From: Chitinophagaceae bacterium | GTDB taxonomy: Bacteria > Bacteroidota > Bacteroidia > Chitinophagales > Chitinophagaceae | DNA: 28,256 bases | Direction of reading: 5' to 3' | NCBI GenBank assembly: GCA_036383615.1 | Contig: DASVNY010000082.1 | Location: 1-28,256 of the forward strand | Part shown: one piece after another, positions 215 to 26,734 of the stretch | Layout of the letters: each line of letters opens with the position of its first letter | How positions within the stretch are numbered: position 1 is the first letter of the stretch | Made by a program: the position numbers and the translations under genes | The notes under the pieces: generated by a model | Database searches by the model: none | Told to the model about the DNA's origin: nothing | The model's input: only the letters and a program-made list of their open reading frames with translations

Positions 215-296
215 AAAATGTAAAATGTAGAATACAAAATTTAAAAGTGGGTGATTTACTTTTACATTTTATATTCCTTATTTTTTATTTTTCATT
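215..296. repeat. Inverted 7-nt-period repeat array (AAAATGT-like units, then TTACATT-like units)
   Basis: aaaatgt aaaatgt agaatac aaaattt aaaagtg (215-249), then tttactt ttacatt ttatatt ccttatt ttttatt tttcatt (255-296). Confidence 0.6.
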
Positions 297-306
297 AAAC
301 TATAAT

Positions 307-1356
307 ATGACACCTGTTATTCGTACTGGCATCTGTTCCTATGGCATGAGCGGTAAACTGTTTCATGCTCCATTTATCGAAGCACATCCCGGCTATGAAC
401 TGGCTGGTATTGTTGAAAGAAATAATAATGATTCAAGAGAGCGATATCCCAATAGCAAATTGTTTCGTTCTGTCGAAGAGTTGTGTGCGGATAAAGAACT
501 GCAATTAATTGTAGTGAACACGCCAACGCATTTGCATTTCGAACAGGCGAAACTGGTGTTGCAGTCTGGCAAGCACATGATAATAGAAAAACCTTTTGCT
601 ATCACGGTGAAGGAAGCAGAAGAGTTGACGGCTCTGGCCGAAAAAAATAACCTGTTCCTCAGTGTGTATCAAAACCGCCGCTATGATGGCGATTACCGTG
701 CTGTTAAAAATGTAGTAGAACAAAACCTGCTGGGGGAAATAAGGGAAGTTGAAATTCGTTATGACCGTTATCGTCCTGCATTCGGCGGCAAGGCACATAA
801 AGAAGGCCCAATGCCTGGGGCAGGGAACTTGTTTGATCTTTCACCGCACCTCGTTGACCAGGCTATTCAATTATTTGGTTTTCCTAAAGCAATGTTCGCC
901 GATCTTATCAAAATGAGAGATGATGTAGCCGTACCTGATTATTTTGAGATGCTTTTTTATTATGATCGCTTAAGAGTACGATTAAAGGCCACTGTTATAG
1001 CAAGAGAATCCATCTATGCTTATGTGTTACACGGTATGAAGGGAAGTTTCCTGCAACAGCGGTCAGACCAGCAGGAGCAGCAATTATTACTTGGCACAAA
1101 ACCCTCTTTTGAAAACTGGTGCCCTGCATTATCTTCACCCGATGGTTTGCTGCATACAGAGATCAATGGTGAGGTAGTAAGAAAAGAAACCACTTCCACT
1201 CCCGGTAACTATATGGGTTATTATGATGATATTTATAAAGCGTTGACGGGGCAGGGACCCAATCCTGTTCCGGCAGCGGATGGAATAAGGAACACAAGGA
1301 TCATTGAAGCAGCGCAGCAAAGTGTGGTGGAGAAAAGAATTATTAATTTTCAATAA
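307..1356 (+). CDS. Gfo/Idh/MocA family oxidoreductase (YdgJ/IolW-like)
   Basis: Rossmann start GICSYGMSGKLFHAP, EKP motif (IIEKPF), YQNRRYD and C-terminal HLVDQ. ATG 307 is preferred because the longer ORF start runs through the repeat array. Confidence 0.9.
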   Translation: MTPVIRTGICSYGMSGKLFHAPFIEAHPGYELAGIVERNNNDSRERYPNSKLFRSVEELCADKELQLIVVNTPTHLHFEQAKLVLQSGKHMIIEKPFAITVKEAEELTALAEKNNLFLSVYQNRRYDGDYRAVKNVVEQNLLGEIREVEIRYDRYRPAFGGKAHKEGPMPGAGNLFDLSPHLVDQAIQLFGFPKAMFADLIKMRDDVAVPDYFEMLFYYDRLRVRLKATVIARESIYAYVLHGMKGSFLQQRSDQQEQQLLLGTKPSFENWCPALSSPDGLLHTEINGEVVRKETTSTPGNYMGYYDDIYKALTGQGPNPVPAADGIRNTRIIEAAQQSVVEKRIINFQ

Positions 1357-1425
1357 TCAATATTCAATGCTCAATTCACATTTGAAAACGCCGTACCTCG
1401 TACTGCTTACCTCGTACTTGCTCGT
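1351..1425. repeat. 7-nt-period repeats overlapping the dacB start and signal peptide
   Basis: caataat caatatt caatgct caattca (1351-1378) and cgtacct cgtactg cttacct cgtactt (about 1391-1418), the latter encoding YLVLLTSYL. Confidence 0.6.
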
Positions 1426-2695
1426 TTCCTGTTCTGTTCAAAAGCAAATCGCAAAATCGGCAAAGGCAGATGTAATAAGTACTGCGCCATTCAAAGCCGC
1501 TCATCTTGGTATCAGTGTTTATGAACCAGCTACCGGAAAGTACTGGTACGATTACCAGGGTGATAAATATTTTGTGCCGGCCAGTAATACAAAAATCCCT
1601 ACCTGTTATGCGGCGATGAAATATTTGGGGGATAGTTTGATAGCTTTTACATATGATGAACTGCCTGACAGGGTTTACATTCAACCAAATGGAGATCCAA
1701 GTTTCTTATTACCAGAATTCAAAAACCAAGGAGCTTTTAATTTTCTAAATAAATTGAATAAGCCAATAAATATTGATCTAAGTGGCTGGAAATCCAGACC
1801 GCTTGGATCAGGGTGGACCTGGAACGACTATGAAGCAACCTATATGGCTGAAAGAAGTGCTATGCCTATATACGGAAATGTAATTAGCTTTTCTGGTCAA
1901 TTATCAAATCCTAAAATATTTCCGGCAAAAGCCGTTGCCTCAATCAAAGCTGATAGCATTAACTCATCTTCGTTTTTAAAAGAGGTTCATAGAGGCAAAG
2001 CCGACAACGACTACATGATAGTCGGTGGTGGAAAGACCTCTACTACCCAGGAGCTCACATTCGATACAGAAAACAGCAAAATAATAGCGCGGCTTTTAAG
2101 TGATACTTTAAAAATACCGGTTAGTTTTTCTTACCCAACATCGATTGTTCCTTATAAAATATCGCCTGACCGTTCTGTGAAAAGCCAACCCACAGATTCT
2201 CTCCTCAAGCCCATGATGCATCGCAGTGATAATTTTTTTGCAGAACAATCATTACTGATGGTAAGCAATAAACTGTTGGGTGTAATGAACGATTCAAAGA
2301 TCATTGACACATTACTTAAAACGGATTTTAAAGATCTTCCTCAAAAACCACGTTGGGCCGATGGCTCCGGGCTTAGCCGCTATAACCTATTTACACCGCA
2401 GGATTTTGTTGCCATCCTTAATAAGATGCAGAAAGAATTTCCGATGGAAAGGATCAAAACAATATTCGCTACAGGTGGTGAAGGGACCATTAGCAGTTAT
2501 TATAAAGCCGACAGCGGTTATATATATGCCAAAACAGGAACGCTTTCAGGAGTAGTTGCCTTCAGTGGTTTTCTCTATACCAAAAAAGGGAAGCTGCTTA
2601 TCTTCTCTACACTGGTAAATAATCACCAGGCTAATGTAACCGATATAAGAAGGGCCATTGAAAAATTCCTCAAGGGAATTCGTTCCCGATATTAA
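1367..2695 (+). CDS. dacB: D-alanyl-D-alanine carboxypeptidase/endopeptidase, peptidase S13 (PBP4), lipoprotein
   Basis: SxxK (PASNTK), SDN (HRSDNFFAE), KTG (AKTGTL), DGSGLSRYN and a lipobox (LLVSC). Confidence 0.92.
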   Translation: MLNSHLKTPYLVLLTSYLLVSCSVQKQIAKSAKADVISTAPFKAAHLGISVYEPATGKYWYDYQGDKYFVPASNTKIPTCYAAMKYLGDSLIAFTYDELPDRVYIQPNGDPSFLLPEFKNQGAFNFLNKLNKPINIDLSGWKSRPLGSGWTWNDYEATYMAERSAMPIYGNVISFSGQLSNPKIFPAKAVASIKADSINSSSFLKEVHRGKADNDYMIVGGGKTSTTQELTFDTENSKIIARLLSDTLKIPVSFSYPTSIVPYKISPDRSVKSQPTDSLLKPMMHRSDNFFAEQSLLMVSNKLLGVMNDSKIIDTLLKTDFKDLPQKPRWADGSGLSRYNLFTPQDFVAILNKMQKEFPMERIKTIFATGGEGTISSYYKADSGYIYAKTGTLSGVVAFSGFLYTKKGKLLIFSTLVNNHQANVTDIRRAIEKFLKGIRSRY

Positions 2696-2700
2696 GAGAG

Positions 2701-2781
2701 GAGGACACGGATGGCACGGATTTGAAGGATTTACACGGATTAAATCAGTGATAATCCGTTTGATCAGTGTTATCCGTGTTC
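2701..2781. repeat. Palindromic 9-nt-period element (CACGGAT units / ATCCGTG units)
   Basis: cacggat at 2706, 2715 and 2734, aaggat at 2725; inverted atcagtg/atccgtg at 2744, 2763 and 2772. Same layout as 19345-19460. Confidence 0.85.
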
Positions 2782-2877
2782 ATGCTCTGATCAGGACTAA
2801 ATGATAAGCTTGTGTTAGATCTTCATTCACCAATATGAAGAAGATCACTCTCTTGTTCCTTTGCTGTCAGCAATAGC

Positions 2878-4422
2878 TTATGGATTATAGAACTGCCATT
2901 TGCCATCCGGTTGAATAAGAATGGCGATCTCGCTCAAATCGCTTTCATTATTATTTTTTCCGACAGCCGTTACCACATAACGATAAGAAAACTGTTTGGA
3001 AGAAAGTGTATCGGTAAACGTGAAGCCCTCCGGTGTCATATGAAATTTGGAAATGTATTTGGGCACATTGCCAAACAACTCGGTATGTGATTCCACTGCA
3101 TACTTATATACCACATAATATTTGATCGGCACCCTGTTTCTCGGATCAGGAACAACCTTGAATTGTATTGCTGAATCCCTGATCGTTTTTTCTACTATCG
3201 GCGGCCAGGGTTTTTCATTATCAATCCAGCGCATCGGAGGGAGCAACGCCGGGTATTTATAATAATTCTCTCTCAAACTATCGGCCCAACCATTGGGGTT
3301 GCGTTCAAGCGGGCGACTGCTATAATATATGCTTCCCTGCACATTCGGGTATTTGCGTAATAACTTTATCTGGTTGGGGATCTCGTTCGGGTTCTGCCAG
3401 GCTGCTATATTCTCATACTTTTTATAAATACCATGCCCGACATAAATATGTTTGCCATAGCTGTTACGGCTCCACCAGTTCAGCATTTTTTCATAGGCTA
3501 CTTTATCATGCCCTATCTCGAAATAGATCTGTGGAGCTACATAGTCGATCCAGTCTTTTTGCAACCACAATAATATATCAGCATAGAGATCATCATAATT
3601 GGTTTGACCCGCTCTGGTGTCACTGCCTCTTACAGGATCTTTATCCTTATTTCTCCAAACACTAAAAGGTGAAATACCAAAACGGCAAAGCGGTTTTTCT
3701 TCTTTGATAGCGATACTCAGCTTGCGAATGATGCTGTCAACATTGCTGCGGCGCCAATCATCTTTGTTTAGTTTGCTTCCTGATCTTGCATAAGCGGCTG
3801 CATCAGGAAATTCTTTGCCGGGAATACGATAAGGATAGAAATAATCATCCATGTGAATAGCGTCAACATCATAACGCTTCACGATATCACGAACCACTTT
3901 TACCACAAAATCCTGCGCTTCGGTGTTGGATGGTTCAAAATATTTTTTGTCTCCGTAGGTAACAAACCATTCGGGATGAATACGTGTAACATGATTAGCG
4001 GCTATTGAAGAGGTGTTCACATTAAAAACAGCCCTGTAAGGATTTAACCACGCATGAAATTCCATTCCTCTTTTATGCGTTTCCTCGATCATGAACTGCA
4101 AAGGATCATAATAAGGAGATGGTGGTTTGCCCTGCACGCCTGTGAGCCACTGGCTCCAGGGTTCATAAGGAGAAGGATAAAAGGCATCACCGGCCGGTCT
4201 CACCTGCATTATGATAGCATTCATGCCATTTCGCTGGTGCATATCCAGCAAGCGTATAAAATCTGCTTTTTGTTGTTCAGGATCTGTGACTCCGCGCTGT
4301 GGCCAGTCGATATTTTCAACGGTAGCTATCCAAACTCCACGGAATTCATACTTTGGTTGGGCAAAAACGGAAACGAAAGAACTTGCTACTATCAGGAGGC
4401 AGGCAATGACGGATCTTTTCAT
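2878..4422 (-). CDS. Glycoside hydrolase-like family 10 (YddW/DigH-type) periplasmic hydrolase
   Basis: Signal peptide, EFRGVWIATVENIDWP, QVRPAGDAFYPS, EFHAWLNPYR, IHMDDYFYPY and WIDYVAPQIY. Confidence 0.9.
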   Translation of the reverse strand: MKRSVIACLLIVASSFVSVFAQPKYEFRGVWIATVENIDWPQRGVTDPEQQKADFIRLLDMHQRNGMNAIIMQVRPAGDAFYPSPYEPWSQWLTGVQGKPPSPYYDPLQFMIEETHKRGMEFHAWLNPYRAVFNVNTSSIAANHVTRIHPEWFVTYGDKKYFEPSNTEAQDFVVKVVRDIVKRYDVDAIHMDDYFYPYRIPGKEFPDAAAYARSGSKLNKDDWRRSNVDSIIRKLSIAIKEEKPLCRFGISPFSVWRNKDKDPVRGSDTRAGQTNYDDLYADILLWLQKDWIDYVAPQIYFEIGHDKVAYEKMLNWWSRNSYGKHIYVGHGIYKKYENIAAWQNPNEIPNQIKLLRKYPNVQGSIYYSSRPLERNPNGWADSLRENYYKYPALLPPMRWIDNEKPWPPIVEKTIRDSAIQFKVVPDPRNRVPIKYYVVYKYAVESHTELFGNVPKYISKFHMTPEGFTFTDTLSSKQFSYRYVVTAVGKNNNESDLSEIAILIQPDGKWQFYNP

Positions 4423-4459
4423 GTTTTCAGTTTGGGATCAATGAGTAAGTAAAAATACA

Positions 4460-4918
4460 TTATTCACTGCCATCCCGTGCTTTATCGAGGAGATTGCTAA
4501 GCATTTCAGCCTCTTTTTCAGATAAGTTTTGCAAAACGCCATCCATTTCCTGCTGCCGGGCATCCAGTTTCTCCAACAATTTTTGCCCTTTATCAGTGAT
4601 GATCACATCTACAAGGCGTCGATCTGATTTACAAACAACTTTTTTAACCAGTCCCTTGGCTATTAAACGATCAACAATACGGCTGGTATCGCTCATTTTT
4701 TCCAGCATTCTTTCCCTTATTTGTAAAGTAGAAAGTGGTTTAGGGAAACTTCCCCTGAGTATGCGAAGAATATTGAATTGCTGAGGGGTGATATCCTCTG
4801 CTTCAAAAATATGCCGGGTCCGCTCCCTCATCCACCCGATCGTAAAGATGAGGTTGATAGAAGCCTTTTGATAGACATTCCTGAATTTGGCCTGCTGTAT
4901 GTCTTTATCAATACCCAT
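4460..4918 (-). CDS. MarR family transcriptional regulator
   Basis: ITPQQFNILRILRG...SDTSRIVDRLIAKGLV...DRR winged helix. Start at 4918 (MGIDKD) is preferred; 4939 is possible. Confidence 0.9.
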   Translation of the reverse strand: MGIDKDIQQAKFRNVYQKASINLIFTIGWMRERTRHIFEAEDITPQQFNILRILRGSFPKPLSTLQIRERMLEKMSDTSRIVDRLIAKGLVKKVVCKSDRRLVDVIITDKGQKLLEKLDARQQEMDGVLQNLSEKEAEMLSNLLDKARDGSE

Positions 4919-4940
4919 AACTGTTTGCATAAACCACATT

Positions 4941-4962
4941 GATGATATTAGTAAATATTATC
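4941..4962. promoter_or_regulatory. Imperfect palindrome upstream of marR, a possible autoregulatory operator
   Basis: gatgatatt-agta-aatattatc; the arms match at 8 of 9 positions. Confidence 0.4.
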
Positions 4963-4988
4963 GCAGCGGTGTGTGTACTGGTAAAAGT

Positions 4989-5031
4989 AAAAAGTTTCGG
5001 GCTAAGCCAGTAGCCCTGCCCAAAACTTTTT
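4989..5031. terminator. Stem-loop with A and T tracts between the SnoaL gene and marR
   Basis: aaaaagtttcgggcta-agccag-tagccctgcccaaaacttttt. Confidence 0.55.
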
Positions 5032-5055
5032 GGATGAATCAGCTTCTTTGCCGTT

Positions 5056-5409
5056 TTAATTGTTGTAATAGAATTTCTCTTCAACGATCTTGCCATTCTT
5101 CCAGCGCTGAACGGCTATTTGGCGATAAGTACGCACTCCATAATCCTTATGCGTGTAATCAAACCACCATTCTGTAACTGCAAGATCATCACTCACCAGT
5201 GTATTCAGGATCTTAGCGTCGCGGAAATCTGTAAGGCCACCCACAAACGCTTCTTCATACTGGCGGTTAATATCCTTTCCTACACGGGCAGGATAATCAT
5301 TGTCCTGCATAACCACTTCTTCGGAATAAAATTTTTCAAACGCATCAAGGATCTTTCCTTCCAGCACCATCTGGTTGAGCTGGTCAACATTCGTTCTCAG
5401 ATCAGACAT
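5056..5409 (-). CDS. SnoaL-like / NTF2-fold protein
   Basis: 117 aa from MSDLRTN; AFEKFYSEEVVMQ, vicinal TEWWFDYTH and QRWKNGKIVEEKFYY. Confidence 0.85.
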   Translation of the reverse strand: MSDLRTNVDQLNQMVLEGKILDAFEKFYSEEVVMQDNDYPARVGKDINRQYEEAFVGGLTDFRDAKILNTLVSDDLAVTEWWFDYTHKDYGVRTYRQIAVQRWKNGKIVEEKFYYNN

Positions 5410-5451
5410 TGTAATATGTTTTAGTGTGTGATAAAATGAGAACACAAAATT

Positions 5452-5465
5452 AATGTTGTAACATT
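5452..5465. promoter_or_regulatory. Palindrome upstream of the SnoaL gene, candidate operator for the downstream MarR
   Basis: aatgttgtaacatt, self-complementary at 12 of 14 positions. Confidence 0.45.
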
Positions 5466-5530
5466 GAATATCCAAATAAATGTAGTTTTTCAAATAATCC
5501 TTAGCCATTCTTTAACATACGCATAGAGCA

Positions 5531-5705
5531 GGTCATATCAGTCATAGAAGTCATATTGGTCATAGGAGTCATATAAGTCATGGCAGTCATATCGGTCAAA
5601 TGGGTCATGCCAGTCATACAGCAGATTACTTGACCGATATGACCCGTTTGACTCCTATGACCATTTGACCACTATGGCCCTTTGCCCTCTATGACCAATA
5701 TGACC
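5531..5705. repeat. Large inverted 9-nt-period array (10 GTCA units, then 9 TGAC-like units)
   Basis: GTCA at exactly 5532, 5541, ... 5613 (period 9); TGAC/TGGC/TGCC at 5631, 5640, 5649, 5658, 5666, 5675, 5683, 5692 and 5701. Confidence 0.92.
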
Positions 5706-5706
5706 T

Positions 5707-6198
5707 CTATGCCTTTGCTTCTCTTCTTACTTCCGCTGCCAGTTTAAAGATGGTAAAGAGATGATGCGCTTCATGCAGTAAAAAGAAATGAAGCCACTGA
5801 ATAAGATTCATTGTTCCATACACAGGGTGAATAGCCGTTTTTTCATAATCCGACTCACGGAATGAAATAATTTCTGCTGCCATCTCCTTCCTTGTCGTTA
5901 TCATATCCTGCATGATCTCTCTTGATGATTTTTCGCAGTTATCAAGAAACAAAGGATCGCCTTCTGCAGAATAGCGATCGAATATAGGCGTCTTTCCTTC
6001 CAGCATTTGTTTCACCCTGCTGATAAATGTGTGCTGGTAGGTTTGTAAATGCACAATGTTTTCGAAGATGGACCATTTGCCGGGGACAATATGTCTCCTT
6101 ACCTGTTCATCTGTGAGACCATCAATAATATCCACTAATGATTTGTGCTGGTACTGAAGACGTGTAGAAACAGAAGAGGGGATTTGCATAGAATTCAT
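5707..6198 (-). CDS. DinB/YfiT family protein
   Basis: GKWSIFENIVHL, HPVYGTMNL and LHEAHHL metal-binding His pattern. Confidence 0.9.
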   Translation of the reverse strand: MNSMQIPSSVSTRLQYQHKSLVDIIDGLTDEQVRRHIVPGKWSIFENIVHLQTYQHTFISRVKQMLEGKTPIFDRYSAEGDPLFLDNCEKSSREIMQDMITTRKEMAAEIISFRESDYEKTAIHPVYGTMNLIQWLHFFLLHEAHHLFTIFKLAAEVRREAKA

Positions 6199-6224
6199 TT
6201 AAGGTTGAAACAGTCATCTTTTTT

Positions 6225-6300
6225 GAGCTACGAGCCGCGAGCTATTAGCTGCGAGACCAATAGTTCGAAAACGACCTTGAAGCCTCGAAGCTCATAGCTT
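6225..6300. repeat. Inverted 7-nt-period array (GAGCTAC-like / CTCGAAG-like)
   Basis: gagctac gagccgc gagctat tagctgc gag (6225-6255), then cttgaag(c) ctcgaag ctcatag ct (6276-6299). Confidence 0.75.
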
Positions 6301-6311
6301 TTAACTCCTAA

Positions 6312-6407
6312 TCATTGTTCCCAAACCTTTGTGCCTTCCGAACATCCTTCGCTTTGCTCAGGAGGACAGGGCGCTTACTGTTCCCAAACTTTGGTTCCTT
6401 CGGAACA
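6312..6407 (-). repeat. Direct duplication of the last 11 codons of the radical SAM gene, separated by 30 nt
   Basis: 6375-6407 and 6312-6344 both translate to CSEGTKVWEQ*; all 6 differences are at third codon positions. Confidence 0.9.
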
Positions 6408-7403
6408 GTTAGCACATATGTCGATATTCTTTCTGCCTTTTAGAATTTGCTTCCTGAATTTACTGTATTCCCCGTTTCTCCAGATCTCTTTGAATGATTT
6501 TTTCTTGAGGTCACCCAACTGGTGTTGCGCATCTTTATCAAAACAACAAGGTGCCACCAGGCCATCCCAGGTGATAACGGGATCATGCCAGAGCCGCCAG
6601 CAATGATTGGCCAATTTGCCTTTGAATTCATAACCCTTATCCGTTTTTCGATAACGACTAAACTTATCTATCGAAGGGATTAACTGGTTAGGGTCATTTT
6701 CATAATCATATACCTGAGCGGTTTTGAACCATACATCATCCACTCCTATTTCCTTTGCTAATTTCTTTACATCTTCAACCTGGTGTTCATTTGGTTTCAC
6801 CACTAAAAACTGGAAAACAACAAAGGGCTTTTTACTGTTTAATTCTTTTTTCCATTTCACAATATTCTTTGCTCCTTCGATCACTTTATCCAGTCTTCCT
6901 CCAACACGATATTGCTGATAGACCTCCTGCGTGGTGCCATCAATTGAAATGATCAACCTGTCTAAGCCGCTTTCGATCGTTCTTTTTGCATTAGCATCAT
7001 TCAGGTAATGTGCATTGGTAGATGTGGCCGTATAGATCTTTTTCTGTGAAGCATACTTAACCATATCCAAAAAATCAGGGTTCAGGTAGGGCTCACCCTG
7101 GAAATAGAAAACAAGATAGAGTAGCTCTTTATGCAGTTGGTCTATGGTTTCGCTGAAAAAATCTCTTTTCAGCATACCTGTTGGTCTTGTAAATGCCCGC
7201 AGCCCACTTGGGCATTCAGGGCAACGCAGGTTGCAGGAGGTAGTCGGCTCAAATGAAATGGAAAGCGGCAGACCCCATTGCACAGGTTTTTTTGTCCATT
7301 TACTGATATAATAACTGCTAAGCACTTTTATGCCATTCCAGGCACGGCGGGGAGTTATTTTGGACAAAAGATTAATGGTATCGTTCCTGTTCAACTTCGG
7401 CAT
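6375..7403 (-). CDS. Radical SAM protein with SPASM/twitch domain
   Basis: CNLRCPEC (CxxxCxxC), C-terminal CWRLW...APCCFD and ICANC. Confidence 0.92.
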   Translation of the reverse strand: MPKLNRNDTINLLSKITPRRAWNGIKVLSSYYISKWTKKPVQWGLPLSISFEPTTSCNLRCPECPSGLRAFTRPTGMLKRDFFSETIDQLHKELLYLVFYFQGEPYLNPDFLDMVKYASQKKIYTATSTNAHYLNDANAKRTIESGLDRLIISIDGTTQEVYQQYRVGGRLDKVIEGAKNIVKWKKELNSKKPFVVFQFLVVKPNEHQVEDVKKLAKEIGVDDVWFKTAQVYDYENDPNQLIPSIDKFSRYRKTDKGYEFKGKLANHCWRLWHDPVITWDGLVAPCCFDKDAQHQLGDLKKKSFKEIWRNGEYSKFRKQILKGRKNIDICANCSEGTKVWEQ

Positions 7404-7410
7404 CCGGAAT

Positions 7411-7418
7411 CAAAGTTA
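7411..7418 (-). promoter_or_regulatory. Bacteroidota -7 promoter box for the radical SAM gene
   Basis: TAACTTTG on the minus strand, 7 nt before the ATG at 7403. Confidence 0.5.
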
Positions 7419-7444
7419 AGTTGCTATCTTCAAACAGTCATCAA

Positions 7445-8167
7445 ATGAACCAAGCTCCTGCATACAGTATATTTTCTTCTGGCGATGCAGCATTGACCAT
7501 TGATTTTGGCAATGTGATAGACGTTTCTCTCAACGAAAAAGTAATGACGTTGTTCACCGCCTTGCAAAAACAACCTTTGCCAGGCATGATCGAAGCAGTG
7601 CCCGCTTATAGTTCACTTACCCTCTTTTATGATGTTGCAGCTATAAAAAAGAAAGCCGGTAAAGAGGCTTTGGCTTACGATTGGATAAAAGAACAATTAC
7701 AAAAACTGCTTGTCAATACAGCCGAAGCAAATGAGACCAGTTCAAGGTTTTTGCAAATACCGGTATGTTATGAAGCAGCTTTCGCACCGGGTATTAATGA
7801 ACTGGCTAATGCCAAAGGTTTGCCTATTGAAGAAATAATTTCATTGCATGCATCTAAAAAGTACCGGGTTTATATGCTCGGCTTCTTACCCGGTTTTGCC
7901 TATATGGGAGATGTGGATGAGCGAATAAGTATGCCCCGCAAAACCCAGCCTGAAAATGTTGTGGCAGGGAGTGTAGGAATTGCCGGCAAACAAACGGGTA
8001 TCTATCCATTAGCATCGCCCGGTGGTTGGTGCATTATCGGCAGAACGCCATTGAGATTATTTGACCCGGAAGGCGAAGGTGAATCATTATTTAAAGCAGG
8101 CGATACCGTACAATTCATTTCAATTACGCAAAATGAGTTTGAGAGTTATCAAAGGGGGCATTCTTGA
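7445..8167 (+). CDS. pxpB: 5-oxoprolinase subunit B
   Basis: GDAALTIDFG, EAVPAYSSL, VYMLGFLPGFAY, GSVGIAGKQTGIYP and SPGGWCIIGRT. Confidence 0.92.
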   Translation: MNQAPAYSIFSSGDAALTIDFGNVIDVSLNEKVMTLFTALQKQPLPGMIEAVPAYSSLTLFYDVAAIKKKAGKEALAYDWIKEQLQKLLVNTAEANETSSRFLQIPVCYEAAFAPGINELANAKGLPIEEIISLHASKKYRVYMLGFLPGFAYMGDVDERISMPRKTQPENVVAGSVGIAGKQTGIYPLASPGGWCIIGRTPLRLFDPEGEGESLFKAGDTVQFISITQNEFESYQRGHS

Positions 8168-9122
8168 TACGGTGCAGGACATGGGTCGCATCGGTTACCA
8201 GCATCTCGGGATCAATCCCGGTGGTGCCATGGATAAATATGCGGCGCAAATAGCCAATATTCTTGTTGGCAACGACAGCACTGAAGGCGTTATTGAATTA
8301 CACTTTCCTTCTTCCTCATTCATATTTGAACAACCTGCACTGATCGCATTAAGCGGTGCCGATTTTAAAGCAAGCATTAACGGAGAAGAAGTGCCCACCT
8401 TACATCCTCTTTTGCTTGATAAGTATAGCATACTACAGTTTCATGCTATTAAAAATGGAGCAAGAGCTTATATCGCTGTACACGGTGGTTTTGAAATAGA
8501 AAAATGGCTGGGCAGTTACAGCACGCATATTAAGGTGGAGAAAGGTGGTGTGAATGGCAGGGCCTTAAAATCTGACGATGAAATTGCAATCCGCAGAAAA
8601 TCAAAACTGCCTTTTATTAAACATGAAGATGAATTTTATGTGTTGCCCTGGAAAGCGGATACAAACTGGGGGGATCCTTTTGAAAAACATATTGCCATAT
8701 TAGCGGGTCATGAATGGAACCGGCTGACGGATGAAGCAAAGAAAAAATTCCATTGTGGCTCATTGAGTATCACCCGTCGTTCGGACAGGATGGGTTATCG
8801 TTTAAAAGGTGATCCCGTGCAGGTAATAACAAATGAAGAAGTTGTTTCTTCCGCTGTGGGTTTTGGTACGATCCAATTATTACCCGATGGCCAGTTGATC
8901 GTGTTGATGGCAGATCATCAAACAACAGGCGGCTATCCGCGGCTGGCGCATGTGATCACTGCGCATCATTCAAGAATGGCACAAATGAAACCCGGCGATT
9001 CGGTTTCATTCAAACTGACCGATCAGCAAACAGCCGAGAAATTGTATTTAAAACAACAGCAGCATTTAGCGCAACTGCGAAATGCCTGTACTTTCAAGCT
9101 TGAACAATTTTTAAAGCCGTGA
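8133..9122 (+). CDS. pxpC: 5-oxoprolinase subunit C
   Basis: DTVQDMGR.G....GI.PGGAMD, SDRMGYRL, GTIQL.PDGQLIVLMADHQTTGGYP. Confidence 0.92.
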   Translation: MSLRVIKGGILDTVQDMGRIGYQHLGINPGGAMDKYAAQIANILVGNDSTEGVIELHFPSSSFIFEQPALIALSGADFKASINGEEVPTLHPLLLDKYSILQFHAIKNGARAYIAVHGGFEIEKWLGSYSTHIKVEKGGVNGRALKSDDEIAIRRKSKLPFIKHEDEFYVLPWKADTNWGDPFEKHIAILAGHEWNRLTDEAKKKFHCGSLSITRRSDRMGYRLKGDPVQVITNEEVVSSAVGFGTIQLLPDGQLIVLMADHQTTGGYPRLAHVITAHHSRMAQMKPGDSVSFKLTDQQTAEKLYLKQQQHLAQLRNACTFKLEQFLKP

Positions 9123-16325: not shown

Positions 16326-16343
16326 GGGGATAGTGATACAGCT

Positions 16344-16444: not shown

Positions 16445-16473
16445 CACGATCCACTACTCGCTAACTCTACATT

Positions 16474-16541
16474 GGCCCTTTAAGCAAAACAAATCAGGCC
16501 CTTTAAACAAAGTCACCGGGTAAAGCTCATTGTAGATTTGT
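16474..16541 (+). promoter_or_regulatory. Tandem operator plus -7 box upstream of the DUF2652 gene
   Basis: ggccctttaagcaaa...ggcccctttaaacaaagtca, followed by TAGATTTG (TAnnTTTG). Confidence 0.65.
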
Positions 16542-16559
16542 TTATCAAAACAATTTGAA

Positions 16560-17195: not shown

Positions 17196-17208
17196 TCATT
17201 TCATACAA

Positions 17209-17248
17209 AAACAAAAGCCCAACCATAGGGTAAGTTGAGCTTTTTGTT
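17209..17248. terminator. Bidirectional terminator between convergent genes
   Basis: aaacaaaagcccaac...gttgagctttttgtt, with A and T tracts on either side. Confidence 0.7.
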
Positions 17249-17274
17249 AATCATCCATCCTTGTGTGTGTCCAA

Positions 17275-17994: not shown

Positions 17995-18186
17995 AGGGAT
18001 ACAGATTTCAGCTAACTAACGTTATACGAGTCGAAAATATTATCTGTTATTTCAAAATTCAATGAATAAAATACTGTTCTATAATACGTTGCGAACAAAT
18101 ACGCAAAGCAGTTAGGAACAATGAAGAAAAACTACGAGTGGTTATTTCGGAAATAAGTGTTTCTATTAAAATGCGGTTAACCAGGA

Positions 18187-19230
18187 TCAATTCTCCATGA
18201 TCTTATGCGCATCTCTTTGTTTGCTGATAAATTCATTTGAATAGATCTTCAGCAGGAGTATAAATAAAGAAATAACAAGCGGACCAAATATCAACCCGAT
18301 AAAACCAAAGAGGTTCAACCCAATGATAACACCGAATACGGTTGTCAACGGATGCACATCTCCCAACTTTCTTAATAAGGTAAACCGAAGCACATTATCA
18401 ATGCTGCCGATGATACCAAAACCAAAGACCAGCATAGCGATGCCCTGCCAGTTCTGTCCATTGGCTAAAAAGATAACTGCAATAGGAACATAAGCCAGTG
18501 CTGCACCAACAACAGGTATCATCGCTGCTATGCAGGTGACGCCGAACCAAAAGAAAGGTTCTTTCACCCCGATGATCAAATAACCGATCAATGCAATTAA
18601 TCCCTGCACCAATGCGATCACAGGAATGCCAATCGCATTTGACATTACCATTTTATTGATCTCTTTGCCCACTTTGGCAACGTTCTCATCCCGCAGGGGA
18701 ATATATTCATACAATGCATCTTCCATTTTTCTTCCATTCACCAGCATAAAGTAGAGAATGAAATACATAAAGAAGATCGTGGTTAAGATGTTGAACGTGG
18801 AGCCAAGTATTTGCGGCAGGCTTGATGCGATCACATTTCCAAGCTTATTGATATTCTCATCGCTCACAAGCGTTATATCAAATTGCTGCTCCAGGTTGTT
18901 GACCAGCTTCTTTAATGCCGCTACCAGTTCTGATGAATGCTGGATAGCATACGCAACTTTTGAGGAAAGCATGTTGGCCAGCAGGGCCACCGGCAGCAGG
19001 ATGATGATAAAAGAAACGACCATCAGCAATAATGCTGTCCACCCCTTTCGCCATTTTTTCTTTTCGGTGAGATAAAACATCCGGCGATGCAGCAGGATAT
19101 ATAATGTAATCGCCCCCAATAATGCCGGCAGGAAAGAATAAAGTTGAAGGAAAAGCAACAGACCCAGCAACAATAAAAGAAGAATGAAAAATATTTGCCG
19201 TATCCGGTTCTGATCAATGGTGTTCGCCAT
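18187..19230 (-). CDS. AI-2E family transporter
   Basis: Multi-TM protein with IPVVGAALAYVP, IDNVLR and HPLTTVFGVIIGL.LFGFIGLIFGP; start at MANTIDQ. Confidence 0.92.
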   Translation of the reverse strand: MANTIDQNRIRQIFFILLLLLLGLLLFLQLYSFLPALLGAITLYILLHRRMFYLTEKKKWRKGWTALLLMVVSFIIILLPVALLANMLSSKVAYAIQHSSELVAALKKLVNNLEQQFDITLVSDENINKLGNVIASSLPQILGSTFNILTTIFFMYFILYFMLVNGRKMEDALYEYIPLRDENVAKVGKEINKMVMSNAIGIPVIALVQGLIALIGYLIIGVKEPFFWFGVTCIAAMIPVVGAALAYVPIAVIFLANGQNWQGIAMLVFGFGIIGSIDNVLRFTLLRKLGDVHPLTTVFGVIIGLNLFGFIGLIFGPLVISLFILLLKIYSNEFISKQRDAHKIMEN

Positions 19231-19344
19231 GCAGCAGTTAATATGAGCTAAAATTAAAAAAATAAAGGTTGTTTCTGCGAACAACCTTTATTTAAATACA
19301 GGGCAAATGCATTAAAACTTCAAAAGTTGCTAAAACAGATATGG

Positions 19345-19460
19345 GAGAACACGGATGACACCGATTGAACGGATAAACACAGATTTTTTTTAGACTTGTA
19401 GATAACTGACTACTGATCTATCCGTGAAAATCCCTTTGATCCGTGTCATCTGTGTTCTTT
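19345..19460. repeat. CACGGAT-family palindromic element
   Basis: cacggat ga caccgat tga acggat aaa cacagat, spacer, then atccgtg ... atccgtg tc atctgtg ttc. Confidence 0.85.
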
Positions 19461-19599
19461 TTTCACCAATTATTTTTGTGTGTCTGCTCTGTATTTAGGT
19501 AGTGTTCAATTTTCCACAACACAAAATTATTTCTTTGATTTCCTTAGTGATCTTGATGGGAAAAAATTTCATGTCCACGAAAGAACAAGCTTATTCGTG

Positions 19600-21020
19600 T
19601 TATACTTTCACCAATTTCCATTTTCCTTTCTTGAAATAATACCATGCTGCTATAGCCAATGCGGTTTCGGCAACAGGCATAGCGATAAATGCGCCGGTTG
19701 GCCCCCAGTCAAGTGACCGGCAAGCACCCAGGCCAATGGTATCTGGAACAACCAGAAACAAAACAGGTTTATCCAGGTTGGCGTTTTGCTATCACCGGCA
19801 CCGTTCAATGATTGCAGCATCACCATACCGATACCATAAAAAATATACCCGCTGCCGATGATCTGCAGTGCTTGTATAGCAATACCCTTTACTTCCGGAT
19901 CAGTAGTAAATATGCTCACGATCGGCCCGGAGAAGAATACAAATAGTACCGTTACCAGCGCCATGAAAAACACATTGTATTTCGCGGCTAATATCACGCT
20001 TTCAGCTGCACGTTCCGGTTTGCCGGCACCAAGGTTTTGTCCTACCAATGTAGCCGCTGCATTACTAAGTCCCCAGGCTGGCAGAATAAAGAATATTACA
20101 TTCCGGATGGCGATCTGGTAAGCTGCTGATGCTTCTGTATGTCCTGTTGTTGAAACGAGGTAAGCCAATACGATAAAGCTTCCGCTCATAACAAAGAACT
20201 GGACAATGATGGGCCATCCTACCTGCAACAATGTTTTGATCACCGCCGCATCATATTTGAAATGAACAGGTCGAAGCTTGAGGAATCGTTTACCATTAAA
20301 TAAATGATAGCATTGGTATAGTACACCAATACCGCGTCCGATTGTTGTTGCAATAGCAGCGCCTTTTAATCCCAGTTCAGGAAAAGGCCCATAACCATTG
20401 ATCAATAACGGGCAAAGACAGATATTGATGGCGCTGGCTATCCATAAACTGCGCATGGCCATGCTTGCATCACCCACACCGCGAAATATTCCATTGATAA
20501 GAAACAAAAGAATGATAACGATGGAACCGCCAAACATGATCCTTGTGAATACGGCTCCTTCTTTTACTACTTCCGCTGAAGCTCCCATCATTCGAAGTAT
20601 ATCAGGCGCAAATATGGCTCCCCCAATACTTACCACTACGGTTACCCCAAGTGCGATCAATAATGCCTGTGCGGCAGCATGAGCAGCACCTTCCGGGTTT
20701 TTTTCTCCGGTTCGCCTGGCTACTACTGCTGTGGCGCCGGCGCTAAGACCCATGGCGATGGAATAAATGATCGTAATAACTGATTCGGTCAGGCCAACTG
20801 TTGTCAGTGCATTTTCACTATTGGGCAGGTGACCGACAAAATAGAGATCGACAACTGCAAAAAGTGATTCGAGCAACAATTCAAGGATCATTGGGATTGC
20901 CAAAAGAATGATCGCTTTGCGGATGCTGCCGGCTGTATAGTCATGTTCATCTCCCCTGATCGATTGTTTCAGGAGAGAAAAAAAATGTGATAGTTTATTA
21001 GTTGATGTCGGTTGTGACAT
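19600..21020 (-). CDS. MATE family efflux transporter with an apparent 1-nt deletion frameshift near 19711 (sequencing error or recent pseudogene)
   Basis: LAIPMILE, VDLYFVG and TLVGQNLGAG MATE motifs. After ...LAGH the shifted frame continues DWGPTGAFIAMPVAETALAIAAWYYFKKGKWKLVKV* to TAA at 19600-19602. Confidence 0.9.
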
Positions 21021-23351: not shown

Positions 23352-23427
23352 CAATAGGCAATTGGCAATAGGCAATTGGGTCATTTGTGATGAGATTGTC
23401 TATTGCCAATTGCCTGTTGCCTATTCC
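23352..23427. repeat. Inverted 7-nt-period array (GGCAATA/GGCAATT units and TATTGCC units)
   Basis: caata ggcaatt ggcaata ggcaatt gg, spacer, then ctattgc caattgc ctgttgc ctattcc. Confidence 0.85.
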
Positions 23428-24554: not shown

Positions 24555-24628
24555 GAAACAAAGTAATGGATTAAAGCCTGTTTATTAAAGTTACTTTCTC
24601 CCTATTCCACATAATTTTGTTTTACCCA

Positions 24629-25287
24629 ATGACAATCAAATTCATTACTGCCGTTGCATTTACTGTAGTATTAGCAATCAATTATGGTTGCAGTGAAGCA
24701 AAAACAGGTGCTGAAAAAGCTACTGCTTTTGCAAAAAGCGAAACCTTCTTAACAGCTAAGACTGCCATCGAAACTGCTTTTAAAAATGACGGGCTGGAAC
24801 ATGCTATTTGTTTTGGAAAAGATCAGGCCGGTAATAATATCATTTCGGCGATGAGCACCGGTAGCGGGCACAGTTCCTCGCTTGAAACAGTAACGAATAT
24901 GTTGCTGATATCCACAATCATCCTAAAGGAACTCCACCGTCAAGCGGTGATCTGTATGGATTTATTAGCATGGCTACAGAAAACAAAGAGTACGAAACAA
25001 GATATATTATAACAGCTGGTGAAGCTGTTTATGCTTTTGTATTAACCGATCTGAAAACTGCCAGCGAGTTTGTAAGAAAATATCCGAAAGTATCAAACCC
25101 TGGTTTCCAGCCTGGATTTCCTGATTTTTTAGTTGATGAGTTTAACAGGTTGAGAGCCGTTCATGCTGCGAGTGACGAAATGACGATGGCCTTTATTTTA
25201 AAAAAATACAATGCCGGGGTAACGCTGCTAAAGCAGGATGATAAAGGAATCTTTAAATCCATTGAAACAAAAGCATTCGCCGACTAA
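24629..25287 (+). CDS. Predicted lipoprotein with a JAB/MPN-like metal motif, split by an apparent 1-nt deletion at about 24899
   Basis: Signal peptide ending in YGC and EHAICF in the first frame; the second frame reads VADIHNHPKGTPPSSGDLYGFISMATENK... continuously into ORF 24970-25287. Confidence 0.7.
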
Positions 25288-25289
25288 CA

Positions 25290-26102
25290 CTATAGTGCAG
25301 GCAATATCTCCTCCACATGTTTTTCATGCAGCACCTGGTGACCTGAATGAATAATAGTTATTGAACATTGTTCTTCGATCCCTTTTCTGAATTTTTCACC
25401 AACCGAAGAAAGAATGATACGATCATGTTTTCCATAGAGCAGCTTTACCTGTGTGTTATTTTCTTTAATAGATGATCTGATCTTTTTAAGATCAGGTCTA
25501 AGTTTTCGTAAAGCCGTCCATCGGTTATAAAGTTGTTGGCGAACCGTTTTATCACCAATATAATAGTTGACAAATTTGAAGATGCTGGCATTTACAAAAC
25601 CAAGTTTGTTGAGCAACTTTAAAAAACCGAAGAACCAATGCGGTTTCTTCATAGTAAAAGCAAAGAATTTATTTCCCAACCATGATTGAGTAGCCAGCCA
25701 ATACCAGAAATTCACTTTTAAACCATCGGGAGCGAGCAGTATTATTTTTTCTACGGATGCGGGTTGAGATTGATAGAGACTTAGTGCGATGCGGCCGCCG
25801 AGGCTGAAACCAAGATAGGTTAGTTTATTGTTTATGGTTTGTGGTTTATGGGTAAGTATCGCGCCTATTACTTGTTGCAGGTTCTCGTTGGTGAAAGACA
25901 ATCCTTCGTTCCATTCTGTTTTGCCGTGGAAGGGCAGATCGATTGAATAGAAAGTGAATTTATCCCCCGCATATTTTTCGAGAAAACCAAAGGTTGAAGC
26001 CTCTTCACCATATCCATGAAAGCACAGGGCTGTTTGCGGGCCATGGCCAAATTTATAATAGCCGATGACTGAGTTTTTATATGTGATAGAGCAGTATTCC
26101 AT
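25290..26102 (-). CDS. Alpha/beta hydrolase
   Basis: CFHGYGE, IDLPFHGKT, nucleophile elbow GFSLGG, LYGKHD and SGHQVL. Confidence 0.9.
   Translation of the reverse strand: MEYCSITYKNSVIGYYKFGHGPQTALCFHGYGEEASTFGFLEKYAGDKFTFYSIDLPFHGKTEWNEGLSFTNENLQQVIGAILTHKPQTINNKLTYLGFSLGGRIALSLYQSQPASVEKIILLAPDGLKVNFWYWLATQSWLGNKFFAFTMKKPHWFFGFLKLLNKLGFVNASIFKFVNYYIGDKTVRQQLYNRWTALRKLRPDLKKIRSSIKENNTQVKLLYGKHDRIILSSVGEKFRKGIEEQCSITIIHSGHQVLHEKHVEEILPAL
25818..25853 (-). repeat. 7-nt-period array inside the hydrolase coding sequence
   Basis: Minus strand cccataa accacaa accataa acaataa actaacc, encoding HKPQTINNKLT. Confidence 0.65.
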
Positions 26103-26159
26103 GACTACCTGGCGCCTGATTTTTTTGGAAAAATAACTTGGCCATTTCAAAAATAGGAT

Positions 26160-26188
26160 TAATTTTGGATAGTTGCATAAACAACGAT
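26160..26188 (+). promoter_or_regulatory. -7 box and palindromic operator upstream of the second marR
   Basis: TAATTTTG at 26160-26167, then at-a-GTTG-cataaa-CAAC-g-at. Confidence 0.55.
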
Positions 26189-26629
26189 ATGCCAAACAAC
26201 CAATTTAAGAAAGGGGAGTTATACAGCTTTGTAACTGGTAAAGCATCCACCGCTATTGCCAGGAGGTTGCAGAAAAAATTTAATTCAGCCGGGTTGAACC
26301 TGACCATCGAACAATGGAGTGTTTTATATCATTTATGGAAACAGGAAGGTATCAGTCAGCAGGAATTATGCAATGCAACATTCAGGGATAAACCAAGTAT
26401 CACAAGACTGGTTGATAACCTGGAAAAACAAAACCTCGTTAAAAGAGTTGCTTCTGAAACCGACCGGCGTATCAATTTGATCTTTTTGACAAAACAAGCC
26501 CAAAAGTTGCAGGAAGAATCAATGCTGCTCGCCGAAGAAACATTGAACGAAGCATTGGAAACCGTGCCCGCAGATAAAATTGAAGTCTGTAAAGAAGTTT
26601 TGCAGTTGGTGTATGATAATTTGAAATAA
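26189..26629 (+). CDS. MarR family regulator preceding a fatty-acid degradation gene
   Basis: LTIEQWSVLYHLW..EG.SQQEL......DKPSITRLVDNLEK...V.R....DRR. Confidence 0.92.
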   Translation: MPNNQFKKGELYSFVTGKASTAIARRLQKKFNSAGLNLTIEQWSVLYHLWKQEGISQQELCNATFRDKPSITRLVDNLEKQNLVKRVASETDRRINLIFLTKQAQKLQEESMLLAEETLNEALETVPADKIEVCKEVLQLVYDNLK

Positions 26630-26734
26630 GTGAATGGTCAGTGGTGAAAAAAGAAGCTTTCGATATTGAAAAGCATAACTGACTTGATGAATTTTTAAAC
26701 GCATGAAACTCTTAAACCTTTTAAACTCTTTAAT

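Follow-up and report, generated by a model that had tools for sequence, protein, structure and literature searches.

Results

Eight Intergenic Hairpins with Periodic Arms. The window analyzed here, the 28,256-nt contig DASVNY010000082.1 of a soil Chitinophagaceae bacterium, carries eight hairpins (starting at 215, 2701, 5531, 6225, 15430, 16344, 19345, and 23352) whose arms are mirror-image runs of 7- or 9–11-base units. All are situated between protein-coding genes, and their loops measure 1–41 nt. A profile search found no PF05635 or PF13366 match anywhere on the contig, in agreement with the first-pass annotation, which had described the arrays as lacking a partner gene.

Arms of 7-mers occur at three positions. 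The element at 215–296 (AAAATGT-type units) starts 2 nt 3′ of the upstream gene's stop; TRF reports period-7 arrays at 215–246 and 266–296, the inverted repeat 217–232/260–275 is 88% complementary (fold z −3.1), and family copies lie on contigs C511, C272, C782, and C731. GAGCTnn units build the element at 6225–6300 (TRF period 7), a lineage-specific insertion with a weak fold (z −2.2) and seven family matches genome-wide. The GGCAATn element at 23352–23427 (period 7), 9 nt 3′ of a glycosyltransferase stop, has 25-nt arms that are 92% complementary (fold z −7.5). At 5531–5714, the unit is a 9-mer of GTCATA plus three variable bases (TRF period 9), repeated ~10 times per arm; this element pairs in several inverted-repeat registers (fold z −4.8) and ends at the DinB stop.

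The remaining arms consist of spaced heptamers. CACGGAT heptamers at 9–10-nt spacing form GxxExxY-type arms at 2701–2781, between convergent genes (inverted repeat 2705–2741/2743–2779; arms 37 nt, 73% complementary; fold z −5.9), and a 90% copy is present on contig C76. A second CACGGAT hairpin (19346–19458; arms 39 nt, 77% complementary; fold z −4.3) belongs, together with its non-periodic loop and flanks, to a 180-nt repeat unit (19295–19476) with four further copies on C168, C283, C447, and C570 that are 86–94% identical, loop and flanks included. CGCAGAT heptamers at 10–11-nt spacing form the element at 16344–16444, 19 nt 3′ of an AraC stop (arms 44 nt, 77% complementary; fold z −8.2); it has 30 family matches genome-wide, among them C30 at 93% over 71 nt. 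The element at 15430–15493 (19 matches genome-wide) is a truncated copy of this family, mostly right arm; across 52 nt, this right arm shows 87% complementarity to the left arm of 16344 (16351–16402). These two copies of one family bracket an ordinary AraC-family gene.

The eight hairpins thus bear out the inverted periodic arrays reported at first pass, but the half-arrays listed with them do not hold. One (1351–1425) overlaps coding features (the stop of GFO, the start of PBP4, and the sequence that encodes the signal peptide), and its alignment to congeners is gap-free; another (25818–25853) lies in frame within an alpha/beta-hydrolase domain, just 5′ of GFSLGG. The last two (26628–26650 and 26703–26733) are weak, three-unit runs without an inverted partner.

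Genome-Wide Abundance and Position. A scan for periodic inverted arrays, as proposed in the first-pass annotation, was run on the genome from which the window derives (G000; only 77% complete), and the frequencies exceed those of a third-order Markov shuffle: 319 periodic-arm hairpins versus 56, 217 versus 4 when loops are limited to ≤100 nt, and 493 TRF period-7 arrays versus 96. We classed 257 loci as gene-less (23 coding, the rest intergenic or contig-edge), distributed over at least 15 core families; such copies are more than 10 times as numerous as gene-bearing cassettes. They are dispersed repeats that retain non-periodic loops and flanks. Most lie ~10–35 nt 3′ of a stop codon (for tandem contexts, the median is 11.5 nt; ≤35 nt in 44 of 53 convergent cases). 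Junctions between convergent genes carry an element about twice as frequently (11.5% vs. 6.1%), and divergent gene pairs host 32 loci.

Association with PF05635 and PF13366 Genes. G000 encodes 12 four-helix-bundle (PF05635) and 10 GxxExxY (PF13366) genes. Inverted repeats enclose 15 of these 22 genes (68%), compared with 64 of 1,428 other small ORFs (4.5%; Fisher P = 3.6 × 10⁻¹⁵), so the association put forward at first pass is borne out. The accompanying pairing of period with gene type stood in part: four-helix-bundle genes are enclosed by contiguous arrays, mostly of 7-mers, and GxxExxY genes by three to four heptamers spaced 9–11 nt, including CACGGAT and CGCAGAT; however, 8- and 9-mers also enclose four-helix-bundle genes, and the partner of the 9-mer GTCATA is one of these. 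GxxExxY proteins are PD-(D/E)XK nucleases, and the motifs G.G..E..Y, R.D, and E.K are retained in 37 diverged proteins; the four-helix-bundle protein shows no catalytic motif.

Every core in the window has a gene-bearing partner cassette in G000 or a congener. Within G000, the GGCAATn core of 23352 flanks a four-helix-bundle gene at C547 (405–719), as does the GTCATA core of 5531 at C754 (3481–3792). The CGCAGAT core of 16344 and 15430 has partners at C54, a GxxExxY cassette, and on C10 of G001; by eye, the 16344 left arm closely resembles the C54 cassette arm over ~45 nt. No CACGGAT, GAGCTnn, or AAAATGT cassette was found in the 77% complete G000 assembly. CACGGAT partners are located on G007:C502 (L040) and G011:C40, and the 2701 arms are near-identical to those enclosing the GxxExxY gene at L040. 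GAGCTnn, the core of 6225, flanks four-helix-bundle cassettes in G004, G012, G005, and G003, and the AAAATGT-like core of 215 has a related, nnATGTT-armed four-helix-bundle cassette in G013 (L100). Since window cores, and partly whole arm sequences, match those of gene-bearing cassettes (C547, C754, C54, L040, L077, L080, L097, and L085), we regard the window elements as gene-less forms, in keeping with their first-pass description as empty; gene-less and gene-bearing copies have homologous arms. Protein identity and arm similarity increase together, mostly via orthologous pairs, and this correlation is therefore not independent evidence of recognition.

Gain, Loss, and Replacement among Relatives. 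Orthologous junctions differ through gain, loss, and replacement of elements, both across species and among near-identical strains; for the window elements, the positional invariance that would have spoken against mobility was not observed. All five comparable window junctions lack the element in four to nine congeners. At the 5531 junction, the spacer of congeners is unrelated, measures 260 nt, and contains a small ORF. The 6225 junction spans 176 nt in G000 versus 24–31 nt in nine congeners and 8–80 nt in 28 of 31 family genomes. The 16344 element is an insertion when compared with G002, G012, and G011, and the 15430 element is absent from the orthologous junction in these three genomes. The 19295–19476 unit is absent at this junction in eight congeners; on a contig of the near-identical strain X2, 33 other letters separate 19295 from 19519. 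X2 also lacks 17 nt at 5647, within the 5531 element.

The comparison of filled, empty, and absent states suggested at first pass is realized at the C547 site. It is filled in G000 and empty in G005, with homologous arms (28/33 and 42/53 identical) and no clear gene remnant in the loop; G001 has a half-array, five genomes carry another family, and G006 and G009 have neither family's array. The C54 cassette is absent from six congeners and is adjoined by an internally deleted copy with a 65-nt gene fragment; gene loss therefore does happen. CGCAGAT double units show lineage-specific bursts, numbering 60 in G000, 32 in G001, and 0 in seven congeners, and both G000 and G001, which have the most, harbor a matching cassette. 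G003 and G008 carry 16 and 10 CGCAGAT arrays, with no matching cassette among the loci inspected. Movement appears slow at best, because some cassettes (C487, L043, L044, and L050) share both site and arms in four species. We found no target-site duplication or precise empty site; of the 19295 unit, three copies were aligned, and none shows such a duplication. Recombination, rather than transposition, could account for the host flank duplicated at C54 and for the family-for-family replacement at one site.

Terminator and RNA-Level Tests. Canonical intrinsic (Rho-independent) terminators have a GC-rich stem, a loop of 3–8 nt, and a T tract. Positions 1–20000, a range that ends short of 23352, contain 18 terminator-like sites (stem plus T tract) against a shuffle expectation of 16.9, and none of the seven elements in that range is among them. 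A conventional terminator (19260–19293) persists beside the 19295 unit. The secondary terminator role advanced in the first-pass annotation thus found no support in the scanned range. Arm mismatches compatible with G:U pairing on the sense strand are as frequent as A:C ones (99 vs. 101); this lack of RNA-strand bias fits a DNA-level origin of the arms.

Discussion

The eight elements are probably gene-less representatives of several palindromic DNA element families, with arms made of inverted short-unit arrays, that act as selfish units and whose encoded proteins are proposed to read their own arms. In the gene-bearing form, the loop holds one small gene, in either of two variants: an Avd/23S-IVS-type four-helix-bundle protein (PF05635) between contiguous 7–9-nt units, or a GxxExxY PD-(D/E)XK nuclease (PF13366) between three to four heptamers placed one helical turn apart. 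Such elements would behave as selfish units at the DNA level, and gene-less copies would arise at least partly by gene loss and then spread. The encoded protein is a candidate binder of the repeated units of its own arms; GxxExxY might cut at these arms or at a hairpin extruded from them, and the cuts would drive copying or recombination. This putative pairing of protein and arm would, by analogy, resemble the REP/RAYT and NTS/Ssn pairs.

Three other accounts can be set against the selfish-unit reading. Hairpins might have come first, with small genes homing as guests into the loops of resident hairpins and the window copies representing unoccupied targets rather than derivatives. Precedents exist: IS1397 goes into REP loops, and homing endonuclease genes go into their own sites. 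The homologous arms of the filled and empty states at the C547 site, together with the lack of a clear gene remnant in the empty loop, are compatible with this order of events, as are the >10-to-1 excess of gene-less copies, several core families without a cassette in G000, and the use of one architecture by two unrelated protein families. We nevertheless consider it unlikely: the internally deleted cassette beside C54 documents gene loss, arms and proteins diverge together with each protein having its own heptamer, and the spread of the hairpins themselves is left unexplained. A purely local origin, by replication slippage and palindrome formation in AT-rich spacers with neither movement nor a gene link, could draw on the unit-number variation between strains (the 17 nt missing from X2), the expanded arrays at C487, and the half-arrays in G001 at the C547 site. 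It is very hard to credit, given that the same arms are encountered both around genes and at unrelated loci and that inverted repeats favor PF05635/PF13366 genes over other small ORFs (68% vs. 4.5%); for the CACGGAT and CGCAGAT families it is contradicted by dispersed copies sharing non-periodic loops and flanks at 86–94%.

A host function at the RNA level, as terminators, mRNA 3′ stabilizers, or RNase III sites like the stems of 23S intervening sequences (IVSs), might instead keep the elements in place, spread being secondary. Their position just 3′ of stops and their enrichment at convergent junctions point in this direction, and RNase III does cut the IVS stems around S23p ORFs (PMC4990558). 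Yet none of the seven scanned window elements matches a stem-plus-T-tract terminator, the conventional terminator beside the 19295 unit has been kept, mismatches that would allow G:U pairing are about as numerous as A:C ones, 32 loci have divergent genes on either side, and congeners manage without elements at the same junctions. We judge this account quite improbable.

We found no published description of the periodic-arm cassette design, and the elements appear to be small mobile elements of a previously undescribed kind. Among known systems, REP/REPIN sequences have as partner a RAYT, a Y1 HUH (IS200/IS605-like) transposase flanked by the repeats. The likeness is in short intergenic palindromes present in tens to hundreds of copies, mostly gene-less, with a partner gene that is itself repeat-flanked. 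The first-pass term "REP/RAYT-like" is apt as an analogy only: the partners here are four-helix-bundle or PD-(D/E)XK proteins rather than Y1 transposases, the arms are degenerate short-unit arrays whereas REP is one conserved palindrome, and many core families coexist in G000. That genome has one clear Y1 gene (PF01797) above the Pfam cutoff, flanked by non-periodic GC hairpins on C673, and two further, weak PF01797 matches (C284 and C664). MITEs, non-autonomous deletion derivatives of transposons with terminal inverted repeats and target-site duplications, are likewise small, multicopy, and gene-less, with ends common to the gene-bearing form, and the copy beside C54 resembles a deletion intermediate; unlike MITEs, the present elements have no transposase family, no target-site duplication that we could find, and internally periodic arms. 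Bacterial heptamer simple-sequence repeats include the cyanobacterial STRR. The TAACTGA heptamers of Beggiatoaceae, Cyanobacteria, and Bacteroidetes share intergenic tandem 7-mers, a patchy distribution across lineages, and no known mechanism, but are described as directly repeated, close to start codons, and proposed to act in regulation; for the 170 sets in that paper only one inverted repeat is reported, and the terms "four helix" and "intervening sequence" do not occur in it (PMC4679880).

Closer in layout are the NTS/SRM repeats, in which a gene for the GIY-YIG single-strand nuclease Ssn is flanked by a hairpin that the enzyme demonstrably recognizes, and SRM also occurs in hundreds of gene-less copies (PMC11893778). 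Both systems combine a small nuclease gene repeat-flanked on both sides with many gene-less copies; they differ in fold (GIY-YIG vs. PD-(D/E)XK or four-helix bundle), in the repeat (one conserved hairpin vs. a periodic array), and in recognition, which is demonstrated for Ssn and putative here. Small GIY-YIG genes in G000 have other flanks, a 30-nt inverted repeat or tRNA halves. The 23S rRNA IVSs of Coxiella and Leptospira place an S23p (PF05635) ORF inside a loop closed by a long stem of terminal inverted repeats, and ORF-bearing forms are regarded as selfish, with an unknown means of movement (PMC4990558). A comparable stem surrounds 10 of the 12 PF05635 genes in G000, all outside the window. 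The elements described here, however, lie between protein genes rather than in rRNA helices, have periodic stems, are predominantly gene-less, and include a second, unrelated cargo family.

A broader proposal, which we offer tentatively and consider doubtful, is that the PD-(D/E)XK nuclease and the Avd-like four-helix bundle each read the units of their own arms and that this reading powers a new class of DNA element, mobile or homing, without a transposase or recombinase of a known family. Gene-less copies, the eight here included, would then be non-autonomous passengers that reshape intergenic regions, and ORF-bearing 23S rRNA IVSs would represent the particular case of an insertion into rRNA.

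PF05635 and PF13366 are large families for which, to our knowledge, no cellular role has been assigned outside DGR Avd; the periodic arms give each a concrete candidate DNA partner. Site or structure specificity, should the nucleases have it, would make them potential tools, as happened with Ssn. The elements break assemblies, as many lie at contig ends, and they replace conserved spacers and small ORFs beside genes and hence matter for annotation and intergenic regulation. Such a system would account for the surplus of heptamer repeats that has long been noted in Bacteroidota and other phyla, and it may account for the origin of 23S rRNA intervening sequences.

Periodic-Arm Hairpins Among Ordinary Genes

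The source assembly comprises 3.96 Mb in 851 contigs and is 77% complete; the window is one entire contig (C82, 28,256 nt), and the best run containing its sequence was a soil metagenome. Its genes serve ordinary housekeeping and regulatory functions, encoding a GFO/IDH/MocA oxidoreductase, PBP4-type peptidase, GHL10, MarR, SnoaL, DinB, radical SAM (rSAM), SDR, AraC, DUF2652, AI-2E, MatE, Lrp, OppC, GT2, hydrolase, and acyl-CoA dehydrogenase. Tandem-repeat (TRF) and inverted-repeat searches recovered eight hairpins with arms of degenerate fixed-period units, named here by start coordinate. Their repeated unit words, or cores, are AAAATGT (element 215, 215–296), CACGGAT (2701, 2701–2781; 19345, 19346–19458), GTCATA plus three variable bases (5531, 5531–5714), GAGCTnn (6225, 6225–6300), CGCAGAT (15430, 15430–15493; 16344, 16344–16444), and GGCAATn (23352, 23352–23427). 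Opposite arms mirror each other at the variable unit positions as well; they are therefore true inverted copies, not independent site arrays. Single-strand folding was far more stable than that of shuffles for five of the eight (z −4.3 to −8.2), moderately so for element 215 (z −3.1), and weakly so for 6225 (z −2.2) and 15430 (z −2.5).

The first-pass annotation had proposed at least nine elements of one architecture; these eight stand, but none of its four half-arrays does. The array at 1351–1425 covers the GFO stop codon together with the start and signal peptide of PBP4 and can be aligned to congeners with no gaps, that at 25818–25853 lies in frame within the hydrolase domain, and those at 26628–26650 and 26703–26733 are partnerless three-unit runs. 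Rfam matches in the window (E up to 1) were at chance level throughout, including a plant miRNA model on 2705–2785 (25.8 bits vs. a cut-off of 83). A 40-nt stretch at 6330–6374 resembles the reverse complement of a unit present twice in the rSAM|DinB spacer of one relative (L111); it is single-copy in the source genome and was dropped as a repeat. Two overlapping ORFs at 24617–25287 (131 and 105 aa) have no Pfam match.

Across the genome, we counted 493 period-7 tandem arrays (96 in a third-order Markov shuffle) and 319 periodic-arm hairpins (56 in the shuffle). With loops restricted to ≤100 nt the hairpin counts were 217 and 4, so that array frequencies lie far above the shuffled control rather than matching it. 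Of the eight window elements, three or four escaped the ungapped detector or scored too low in it (2701 was missed and 16344 fell under the periodicity threshold); these counts are thus underestimates. After merging, 257 gene-less loci remained, with a median span of 84 nt, periods of 7 (130 loci), 8 (71), 9 (34), and 10 (19), and at least 15–20 core families. Cores were grouped by per-element consensus units; single-linkage clustering, which chained 203 loci into one cluster, was dropped.

Window Cores Recur Around Two Families of Small Genes

The source genome encodes 12 PF05635 (23S_rRNA_IVP, four-helix-bundle) genes above the Pfam cut-off and 10 PF13366 (PDDEXK_3, GxxExxY) genes; contig C82 carries neither, as the annotation had stated. 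On inspection of their flanks, inverted periodic arrays surround nearly all 22. In an ungapped search, inverted repeats enclosed 15 of the 22 vs. 64 of 1,428 other small ORFs (Fisher P = 3.6 × 10−15), which bears out an association that the annotation had put forward. The arms of four-helix-bundle genes consist of contiguous units, mostly of 7 nt and also of 8 and 9 nt; those of GxxExxY genes carry three to four heptamers, C[AG]C[AG][AG]A[GT], spaced 9–11 nt apart, about one helical turn. Words such as TTAACC or GGTTAAAA begin or end many of the printed arms, as judged by eye.

Each core seen in the window is matched by a gene-bearing cassette—one of these small genes between inverted periodic arms—in the source genome or in a congener. 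The partners of GGCAATn (C547) and the GTCATA 9-mer (C754) are four-helix-bundle cassettes; CGCAGAT pairs with the GxxExxY cassette C54 and with G001:C10:183149, and CACGGAT with G007:C502, whose arms nearly match elements 2701 and 19345, and with G011:C40:24063. GAGCTnn is found at four-helix-bundle cassettes in four congeners (G004, G012, G005, and G003), and an AAAATGT-like core in a fifth (G013). The proposed assignment of 7-mers to four-helix-bundle genes and 9-mers to GxxExxY genes holds as an association but not as a strict rule: GTCATA 9-mers flank the four-helix-bundle gene of C754, and period is therefore not strictly tied to gene family.

GxxExxY proteins of the genus, often <40% identical to one another, keep G.G..E..Y, R.D, and E.K, a pattern consistent with active PD-(D/E)XK nucleases. 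Protein identity and arm similarity were correlated (Spearman 0.22); orthologous pairs dominate this correlation, and it was therefore not counted as evidence of recognition.

Gene-Less Copies Are Dispersed as Whole Units

The CACGGAT hairpin at 19346–19458 sits inside a 180-nt unit (19295–19476) with copies on four other contigs (C168, C283, C447, and C570) at 86–94% identity, the nonperiodic loop and flanks included. No target-site duplication was found around three long copies of this unit. Elements 2701 and 16344 recur on C76 (90%) and C30 (93%), respectively; by eye, the left arm of 16344 is also closely similar to an arm of the C54 cassette. The gene-less copies are thus dispersed repeats rather than local accidents. 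Neighboring copies of one family can bracket ordinary genes, including AraC in the window and genes on C153, C677, and C364; a gene so bracketed is not cargo.

Copy number is specific to the lineage. The source genome has 60 CGCAGAT double units, with 32 in G001, 16 in G003, 10 in G008, and 0–3 elsewhere (0 for a reversed-pattern control); CACGGAT double units number 16 in the source genome, 10 in G006, 8 in G011, and 0–3 elsewhere.

Elements Are Gained, Lost, and Replaced

We compared orthologous spacers in 13 same-genus genomes of shared synteny (~73–75% nucleotide identity) and in family-wide relatives (Chitinophagaceae MAGs and isolates, Bacteroidota) retrieved via the window radical-SAM gene. 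Positions were not invariant: for five junctions of the window, no congener that retains the junction carries the element. DinB|rSAM spans 176 nt in the window vs. 24–31 nt in nine congeners, AI-2E|MatE 365 vs. 140–220 nt in eight, AraC|DUF2652 234 vs. 109–152 nt, and SDR|AraC 100 vs. 65–78 nt; SnoaL|DinB holds a 9-mer hairpin in the window, in place of the 260-nt congener spacer and its conserved small ORF. In 28 of 31 genomes from across the family, rSAM|DinB measures 8–80 nt, and one other genome carries an independent 7-mer hairpin there. At AI-2E|MatE, other congeners have an ordinary GC hairpin and G003 a different GAGC-type element.

Two side observations concern these junctions. The small ORF of the congeners (L001–L009; ~29 aa, MRVVTESIRSFFEGFASFYTLIYDEMKSW) is absent from window 5509–5706, where the 9-mer hairpin occupies the spacer. 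The G003 locus (L014) has GAGC-type 7-mer elements at both g17|AI-2E and AI-2E|MatE; at these junctions the window and the remaining congeners bear either no element or a different one.

The C547 site spans the whole range of states. It is filled in the source genome (541 nt) and empty in G005 (128 nt), with homologous arms (identity 28/33 and 42/53) and only scattered short matches, no clear gene remnant, in the loop. G001 retains the left array only; five congeners (G011, G013, G004, G002, and G012) carry instead a gene-less AAGAG 8-mer hairpin, from a different family, G010 and G008 also have AAGAG-type arrays, and G006 (47 nt) and G009 (80 nt) have an array of neither family. The C54 cassette is absent from six congeners, whose junctions measure 49–114 nt. 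Directly beside this intact CGCAGAT GxxExxY cassette, at C54:8880–9060, lies a second copy consisting of arm, leader, and a ~65-nt gene fragment, accompanied by a duplicated 45 nt of host flank; it is an internal-deletion intermediate. Some cassettes are old, such as C487: G002, G004, and G007 have its counterparts at a shared site, all with CACAAAG arms.

The cassette found about 1–1.5 kb upstream of the GFO gene is of the GxxExxY type in some congeners and of the four-helix-bundle type in others (G012:C1:169621–169971, G013:C8:8530–8880, G007:C539:2384–2734, G002:C1:311584–311898, and G001:C11:269012–269326). This site, which C82 ends short of, may accept either cargo.

Near-identical sequence also occurs on contigs of three other soil metagenomes. 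In one (X2), position 19295 is joined to 19519 with 33 other letters between, including CACTAAG-type words, and the left break is the exact start of the repeated unit. As the junction has a depth of 5 and a shorter side of 36 letters, we grade this evidence for strain turnover as moderate. X2 also lacks 17 nt within the 9-mer array at 5647; elements 5531, 6225, and 23352 are spanned unchanged by contigs of X2 or of another metagenome (X4).

Position and Mechanism

In tandem contexts, gene-less loci lie a median of 11.5 nt after the stop codon (≤10 nt in 58 of 118). The per-junction frequency is twice as high between convergent genes, and 32 loci lie between divergent genes. A terminator role had been suggested; none of seven elements in a scan of 1–20000 matched a stem-plus-T-tract terminator, and a separate ordinary terminator (19260–19293) is still present, adjoining the inserted 19295 unit. 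Arm mismatches in tandem contexts comprised 99 G:U-type vs. 101 A:C-type on the sense RNA, and thus give no sign of pairing maintained in one transcript.

Alongside the observed arm homology, whole-unit dispersal, gain, loss and replacement, and deletion intermediate, the best-supported reading is that the window elements belong, as gene-less members, to a group of hairpin cassettes with small genes that acts as selfish DNA. As the chief alternative, the small genes may home into hairpins already present. Under the selfish-cassette reading, each protein would recognize the units repeated in its own arms, and the nuclease would cut at those units or at an extruded hairpin and so favor copying or recombination. 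The spacing of GxxExxY heptamers by about one helical turn could reflect cooperative binding to one face of duplex DNA. Family replacement at one site and the duplicated C54 flank are explained by recombination no less readily than by transposition.

Relation to Known Systems

Among published systems, the closest are REP/RAYT, NTS/Ssn (PMC11893778), ORF-bearing 23S IVS (PMC4990558), and the heptamer repeats of Beggiatoaceae, Cyanobacteria, and Bacteroidetes (PMC4679880). The window elements depart from each of them in a trait that defines it, be it the partner protein, the location, or the form of the repeat. Our literature searches turned up no account of such arms flanking PF05635 or PF13366 genes.

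Other pairings were seen in the source genome. In a set of loci comprising C673:2425–2769, C611, and C25, a Y1 transposase gene (IS200/IS605-like, PF01797) has nonperiodic GC hairpins nearby, with words such as GCCCCTACGGGGC in eight copies, and may represent a separate REP/RAYT-type system. Small GIY-YIG genes occur at C324:2530–2739, C484:513–716, C598:1178–1393, and C489:7317–7541. Three lie, by eye, between direct copies of a putative tRNA 3′ half; the C489 gene lies among copies of a 30-nt inverted repeat, whose 17-nt word CGTCGGCAGGACAAGAC occurs 18 times in the genome, an arrangement reminiscent of Ssn/SRM. With Y1 and GIY-YIG genes each beside their own hairpins or flanks, several such pairings thus coexist in this genome, and the window elements are ordinary members of an apparently unpublished phenomenon.
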